This document shows positions 14,671 to 15,658 of a stretch of DNA of 64,000 bases, one piece after another. The position numbers and the translations under genes are program-made. The DNA is taken from assembly GCF_057098645.1 (NCBI RefSeq), contig NZ_CM169472.1; one strand, 5' to 3'. The notes under the pieces were generated by a model. The model ran no database searches and was not told the DNA's origin. It worked only from the letters and a program-made list of their open reading frames with translations. Position 1 is the first letter of the stretch. Every line of letters begins with the position of its first letter.

Positions 14671-15658
14671 TGAAGCCACGCTGGCAGAAAGTATTCGCCG
14701 CTTACGTCAGGGTGAGCGTGCCACACTCGCCCAGGCCATGACGCTGGTGGAAAGCCGTCACTCGCGTCATCAGGCGCTAAGTACGCAACTGCTTGATGCC
14801 ATTATGCCGTACTGCGGTAACGCCCTGCGACTGGGCGTTACCGGCACACCCGGCGCGGGGAAAAGTACCTTTCTTGAAGCCTTTGGCATGTTGTTGATTC
14901 GTGATGGATTAAAGGTTGCGGTTATTGCGGTCGATCCCAGCAGTCCGGTCACTGGCGGTAGCATTCTCGGGGATAAAACCCGCATGAATGACCTGGCGCG
15001 TGCCGAGACGGCGTTTATTCGCCCGGTACCATCCTCCGGTCATCTGGGCGGTGCCAGTCAGCGAGCGCGGGAATTAATGCTGTTATGCGAAGCGGCGGGT
15101 TATGACGTAGTGATTGTCGAAACGGTTGGCGTCGGGCAGTCGGAAACGGAAGTCGCCCGCATGGTGGACTGTTTTATCTCGTTGCAAATTGCCGGTGGCG
15201 GCGATGATCTGCAGGGCATTAAAAAAGGGCTGATGGAAGTGGCTGATCTGATCGTTATCAACAAAGACGATGGCGATAACCATACCAATGTCGCCATTGC
15301 CCGGCATATGTACGAGAGTGCCCTGCATATTCTGCGACGTAAATACGACGAATGGCAGCCACGGGTTCTGACTTGTAGCGCACTGGAAAAACGTGGAATC
15401 GATGAGATCTGGCACGCCATCATCGACTTCAAAACCGCGCTAACTGCCAGTGGTCGTTTACAACAAGTGCGGCAACAACAATCGGTGGAATAGCTGCGTA
15501 AGCAGACCGAAGAAGAAGTACTGAATCACCTGTTCGCGAATGAAGATTTCGATCGCTATTACCGCCAGACGCTTTTAGCGGTCAAAAACAATACGCTCTC
15601 ACCGCGCACCGGCCTGCGGCAGCTCAGTGAATTTATCCAGACGCAATATTTTGATTAA
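14663..15658 (+). pseudogene. argK: methylmalonyl-CoA mutase-associated GTPase ArgK/MeaB with premature amber codon at 15491-15493
   Basis: ORF 14663..15493 (276 aa, [28 protein letters not shown]-loop) stops at TAG; same frame continues LRKQTEEEVLNHLFANEDFDRYYRQ... to TAA at 15656-15658, giving the reference 331-aa length if read through. Confidence 0.85.

Follow-up and report, generated by a model that had tools for sequence, protein, structure and literature searches.

The closest described relatives of the gene considered here are YgfD/ArgK of E. coli K-12 (PDB 2P67), the product of the same gene at the same place in the operon, after scpA, and MeaB of M. extorquens (2QM7, 8DPB), which belongs to the same family, PF03308. 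The human member of this group, MMAA (cblA), is truncated in methylmalonic aciduria by premature stops in the same mutase G-protein chaperone. The human pathway is essential and its loss leads to disease. E. coli itself is not known to synthesize cobalamin de novo. All of the solved homologues have C-terminal dimerisation helices. This extension is the dimerisation domain of MeaB and of human MMAA, the active conformer requires that switch III of one protomer reach the GTP site of its partner, and MeaB docks on the Cbl-binding domain of the mutase (PMC9974510). In E. coli the B12-dependent pathway is an accessory one that is silent for the most part, the Sbm ('sleeping beauty mutase') operon of K-12 being described as both 'hardly expressed' and 'often silent' (PMC3850637).

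The window, by which we mean the whole stretch of 64,000 nucleotides that was analysed, carries the same gene (meaB, also named argK or ygfD) adjoining the gene of its client mutase, in the operon order scpA-meaB-scpB-scpC (Table 1). Relative to the K-12 protein, the encoded sequence has four residue differences and a stop, and unlike all of the solved homologues it ends at residue 276 and lacks the C-terminal dimerisation helices. No such difference separates it from the meaB pseudogenes that RefSeq annotates in O145:H28, in which both the codon and the coordinates are the same as in the window.

Table 1. Coordinates of meaB, its lesions and the adjoining genes in the window
Feature	Position	Strand	Remarks
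1-nt deletion (T), argP-scpA intergenic (promoter) region	12503-12504	+	common to RM12581; not in UTME-3, O157:H7 or CP53
scpA (sbm) pseudogene, methylmalonyl-CoA mutase	12588-14670	+	62-bp deletion, junction 14335-14336; RefSeq 'frameshifted'
meaB (argK/ygfD) pseudogene	14663-15658	+	G3E P-loop GTPase chaperone of methylmalonyl-CoA mutase; broken at codon 277
meaB P34S (CCG to TCG)	14762	+	second lineage-specific change; comparison with CP53
amber TAG, W277*	15491-15493	+	ancestral TGG; G-to-A at 15492; next base C
meaB remnant 3' of the TAG	15494-15658	+	54 codons and original TAA; codes for the C-terminal dimerisation arm; untranslated
scpB	15669-16454	+	intact
scpC	16478-17956	+	intact
srsR (ygfI) pseudogene, LysR regulator	17953-18849	-	Q69*, CAA to TAA at 18643-18645; RefSeq 'internal stop'

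The meaB gene and its amber codon

The sequence-only reading had taken this gene for argK, encoding a MeaB-type GTPase, and database comparison bears this identity out: the translation matches the PF03308 MeaB profile of Pfam over residues 22-275 (E = 2.9e-120), the E. coli YgfD structure 2P67 (E = 9e-217) and the MeaB structure 2QM7 (E = 2e-90), and the MMAA structures 2WWW and 8GJU are also among its structure matches. Both the Walker A P-loop (GTPGAGKS) and the base-specificity motif NKDD are present. In the translation of the window the TAG is in frame with the ATG at 14663, and the frame reads QQVRQQQSVE*LRKQTEEEVLNHLFANEDFD, with 54 sense codons (15494-15655) ahead of the TAA at 15656-15658; the sum of 276, 1 and 54 positions is 331, the length of intact MeaB/YgfD. 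The position and context of the amber codon, the number of readable codons beyond it, the terminal TAA and the length of 331 residues had all been given correctly in the earlier reading.

An open stretch of 54 codons has a computed probability of ~0.075 and, being expected by chance that often, proves nothing alone. The frame past the TAG is instead recognized as a remnant of the same gene because it is identical to the intact alleles, the 162 nt 3' of the TAG being the same in CP53 and in O157:H7. Over the gene as a whole, the window and the intact CP53 allele differ at only two bases, 14762 and 15492. The first of these, P34S, is probably neutral as judged from the alignment, since M. extorquens MeaB does not have a Pro at the position aligned with P34. 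At the second, codon 277 is TGG (Trp) in CP53 and in O157:H7 PV15-279, and the K-12 2P67 protein likewise has Trp, in agreement with the earlier reading, which gave TGG as the reference codon and a single-base nonsense change. The intact references also run past codon 277, which disposes of the suggestion that the reference gene might end at the same position. Trp277 is conserved even in M. extorquens MeaB, where QDVKW is aligned to QSVEW. By these comparisons, the meaB TAG is a single-base G-to-A transition, W277*.

The stop removes residues 277-331. The 276-residue product still scores 400 bits against PF03308 and covers profile positions 1-253 of 273, compared with 1-272 for the intact allele, and with the stop at codon 277 the meaB of the window does not amount to a complete frame that includes the C-terminal dimerisation extension. 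Since both protomers of the dimer contribute to the active GTPase site and the dimerisation arm is lost, we expect the fragment to lack activity or stability, and from the lost arm together with the dead client gene we infer that no functional product is made. Some residual activity of the fragment is possible, the GTPase core with its GTPGAGKS and NKDD motifs being intact. That the C-terminal piece is expressed on its own can be rejected, because no in-frame ATG, GTG or TTG follows the meaB TAG from which translation could restart.

Distribution of the allele among E. coli genomes

Allele counts were taken from a collection of 5426 complete E. coli genomes, 4282 of which contain meaB; the other 1144 (~21%) have no megablast match, and the whole operon is probably also absent from ~21% of genomes. 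An 81-nt probe that includes the TAG has an exact match in 26 of the 5426 genomes, and a 41-nt TAG-specific probe, which seeds only when the A is present, matches the same 26 genomes and no others. W277* is therefore carried by 26 of about 4150-4280 genomes that have meaB, with essentially all others full length, and its presence in 26 genomes of the collection identifies it as an inherited allele, not an error. The titles of 19 of these genomes name O145, O145:H28 or O145:NM, and the titles of the other seven give no serotype. The isolates come from several countries and from cattle, humans, lettuce, ice cream, veal and creek water. Besides W277*, the 26 genomes share P34S and srsR Q69*, and all except one have the scpA deletion.

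RefSeq labels the gene "meaB, pseudo, internal stop" in all four of the allele-carrying records inspected, and records such as ECRM12581_RS18845 and WHU23_RS12925 annotate the meaB pseudogene with the same allele and coordinates. The window is identical to no record with which it was compared; it differs from its best match, Z1323HEC0422, by 11 SNPs and one IS insertion. Thus, meaB W277* is already known as a pseudogene in public annotation, and a literature search for O145:H28 pseudogenes found no paper. What is added here is the exact allele count, the broken client gene and regulator, and the sequence of the losses, chaperone before client.

Damage to the client mutase and the adjacent regulator

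The scpA deletion sits between TCGCC direct repeats and shifts the reading frame to a stop at 14397-14399. The deleted codons, 583-604, include the B12-binding motif DGHDRG (DxHxxG) at 595-600, and the truncated ScpA has no match to the B12-binding domain PF02310 in Pfam. Even a repaired MeaB would find no docking domain, because the B12-binding domain of ScpA is gone. The deletion junction is matched without a break in 25 genomes, UTME-3 being without the deletion. The lesion may also bear on the expression of meaB: in the normal arrangement the meaB start and the scpA stop overlap (ATGATTAA), whereas translation of the frameshifted scpA stops 264 nt 5' of that start, so the translational coupling of the two genes is probably lost. 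Upstream of scpA, the 1-nt deletion at 12503 may affect the operon promoter. A scan of the operon for promoters and terminators gave no signal that exceeded shuffle expectation, and none close to the meaB TAG. At position 14607, in the out-of-frame 3' remnant of scpA, T is found only in the window; RM12581, UTME-3, O157:H7, CP53 and Z1323HEC0422 all have A.

Beyond scpB and scpC, srsR is also interrupted. Its Q69* stop is found in the same 26 genomes as meaB W277*, and srsR of O157:H7 PV15-279 has a different stop, W193*, indicating that the gene has been lost twice independently, once in O157:H7 and once in O145:H28. The paper on SrsR/YgfI makes no mention of scp or sbm genes, and the srsR stop is therefore treated as an adjacent event with no known functional tie to the operon. 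The damage is clustered: RefSeq flags as pseudogenes three of ~72 features in the matching record, and all three fall within five adjacent genes, for which our own arithmetic gives a chance of about 0.007. A fourth broken gene lies elsewhere in the window and results from an IS insertion. The element responsible, of the IS3 family, occupies 1310 bp (36509-37818) and resembles IS629. It is bounded by 41-nt imperfect inverted repeats with a 3-bp target duplication, its HTH_Tnp_1 and rve ORFs lie on the minus strand, and positions 37367-37483 form an ALIL frameshift pseudoknot. It breaks a prohibitin-family gene ~10 nt past its start and is absent from Z1323HEC0422.

Other features of the window lie nearer its start. 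Two tandem copies of an ibsC/SibC type I toxin-antitoxin unit, each of ~300 bp and ~90% identical to one another, occupy 8136-8827, with Rfam matches to SIB_RNA at 8162-8312 and 8554-8704, and 6S RNA is found at 7330-7513, all of which are usual in E. coli. In addition, a 76-aa ORF annotated as 'LysR substrate-binding domain-containing protein' lies on the minus strand between rpiA and argP (11120-11350). It resembles a fragment of a longer LysR-type gene and has no pseudogene flag.

Order, cause and meaning of the losses

The order of events is given by UTME-3, which has an O145-type haplotype with both W277* and Q69* but retains an intact scpA and the T at 12503. The intact scpA and the undeleted T are ancestral, because O157:H7 and CP53 also have them, and since UTME-3 combines W277* with an intact scpA, the meaB stop preceded the scpA deletion. 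In the scheme that we favour, a spontaneous G-to-A change would have turned Trp277 of meaB into an amber codon in an ancestor of the O145:H28 lineage and would then have become fixed. Translation of MeaB would end at residue 276, keeping the GTPase core and losing the C-terminal helical dimerisation arm. Decay of the operon would have gone on from there, scpA later losing 62 bp together with its B12-binding motif and the adjacent srsR also acquiring a stop. The 54 readable codons past the TAG would mark the recency of the mutation and not readthrough, because they show zero substitutions even relative to O157:H7. We regard it as very probable that W277* is a nonsense pseudogene fixed in the O145:H28 lineage, most likely through the neutral decay of a dispensable operon. 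Neutral gene decay is the most likely cause of the meaB loss because expression of the operon is reportedly scant even in K-12 and about a fifth of complete E. coli genomes probably lack it. Dispensable metabolic genes of host-adapted E. coli and Shigella collect nonsense mutations, microhomology deletions and IS insertions; the window shows all three kinds of lesion as in those pathovars, on the smaller scale of one operon block and one IS-disrupted gene in 64 kb.

Several other accounts of the amber codon would leave the gene or its product functional. It is scarcely conceivable that the codon reflects a sequencing or assembly error, the true codon being TGG and the gene intact. Assembly errors most often take the form of single-base differences, and outside this codon the gene hardly departs from intact alleles; nevertheless, the same A occurs in 26 independently sequenced complete genomes from several countries, which also answers the earlier proviso that resequencing might yield TGG, and W277* travels with P34S, with srsR Q69* and, in 25 genomes, with the scpA deletion. 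That full-length MeaB is still made, through a suppressor tRNA or a leaky UAG-C, is highly improbable. The 54 downstream codons are intact, the TAG at codon 277 is followed by C, a fourth base at which termination is relatively weak, and UTME-3 keeps an intact client gene. However, basal readthrough of UAG would supply full-length protein at a level well below a few percent, recency accounts for the intact codons, and in the window ScpA is destroyed, so a restored MeaB would have no client. The amber alleles carried with supE44 in laboratory K-12 strains likewise have an in-frame UAG followed by readable sequence. Suppressor alleles, proposed earlier as something to look for elsewhere in the genome, did not turn up among the two types checked, supE and supF. 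No tRNA gene lies within the 64-kb window; the glnX-glnV cluster of O145:H28 RM12581, when inspected, has wild-type CUG anticodons in both glnX and glnV and no supE; and none of the 5441 matching records has a supF-type tRNA-Tyr allele. A supE-type allele does occur in 155 records, and among the 60 listed all appear to be K-12-type laboratory strains or their derivatives. Nor does recoding find support, as no Rfam family, and hence no recoding RNA element, was detected at the meaB locus, and the stop is not conserved across orthologues. We consider it very unlikely that the 276-residue fragment is a working short GTPase, acting as a monomeric chaperone or in another role such as that of the historical 'ArgK' transport kinase. 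The fragment keeps the P-loop, the switch regions and NKDD, along with its strong match to PF03308, but it lacks the dimerisation domain although catalysis requires residues of the partner protomer (PMC9974510), the allele is confined to one lineage among the meaB-bearing genomes, and the translational coupling to scpA has probably been lost too.

A different question is whether the losses were selected, an inactive Sbm pathway, an inactive SrsR or both being advantageous in the EHEC niche. Three broken genes within five adjacent genes and the independent inactivation of srsR in O157:H7 and O145:H28 are consistent with selection, as is the presence of frameshifted genes in a second AdoCbl-mutase cluster of RM12581. 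The intact state of scpB and scpC argues against it, as does the silence of the SrsR paper on sbm and scp genes. Moreover, the operon is reported as barely expressed (PMC3850637), which leaves little to gain by shedding it, and successive hits in an already dead pathway are what neutral decay predicts. The substitutions are too few for a dN/dS test. On balance, selection of the losses is unlikely. The frameshifted genes of the second cluster lie outside the window (RM12581, NZ_CP007136.1 794950-799041), where a methylaspartate ammonia-lyase gene and glmL, encoding a glutamate mutase accessory protein, are so annotated; by this annotation, a second adenosylcobalamin-dependent (methylaspartate) mutase pathway may also be broken in the O145:H28 lineage. 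It is doubtful, if somewhat conceivable, that the locus records an ordered collapse, chaperone first and then mutase, possibly within a wider shedding of AdoCbl pathways in O145:H28.

Neutral decay of the operon thus remains our preferred reading, under which the locus is a small textbook case of the stepwise decay of a dispensable operon, with little import beyond annotation, and W277* says nothing about recoding or the genetic code. If the losses were instead selected, B12-dependent succinate/propionate metabolism would carry a cost in the EHEC niche. Together, meaB W277*, srsR Q69* and the scpA 62-bp deletion provide markers of the lineage, the last of them setting UTME-3 apart from the other 25 genomes. 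Finally, judging from the state of these genes, the O145:H28 lineage would be unable to run the cobalamin-dependent succinate-to-propionate (Sbm) pathway.
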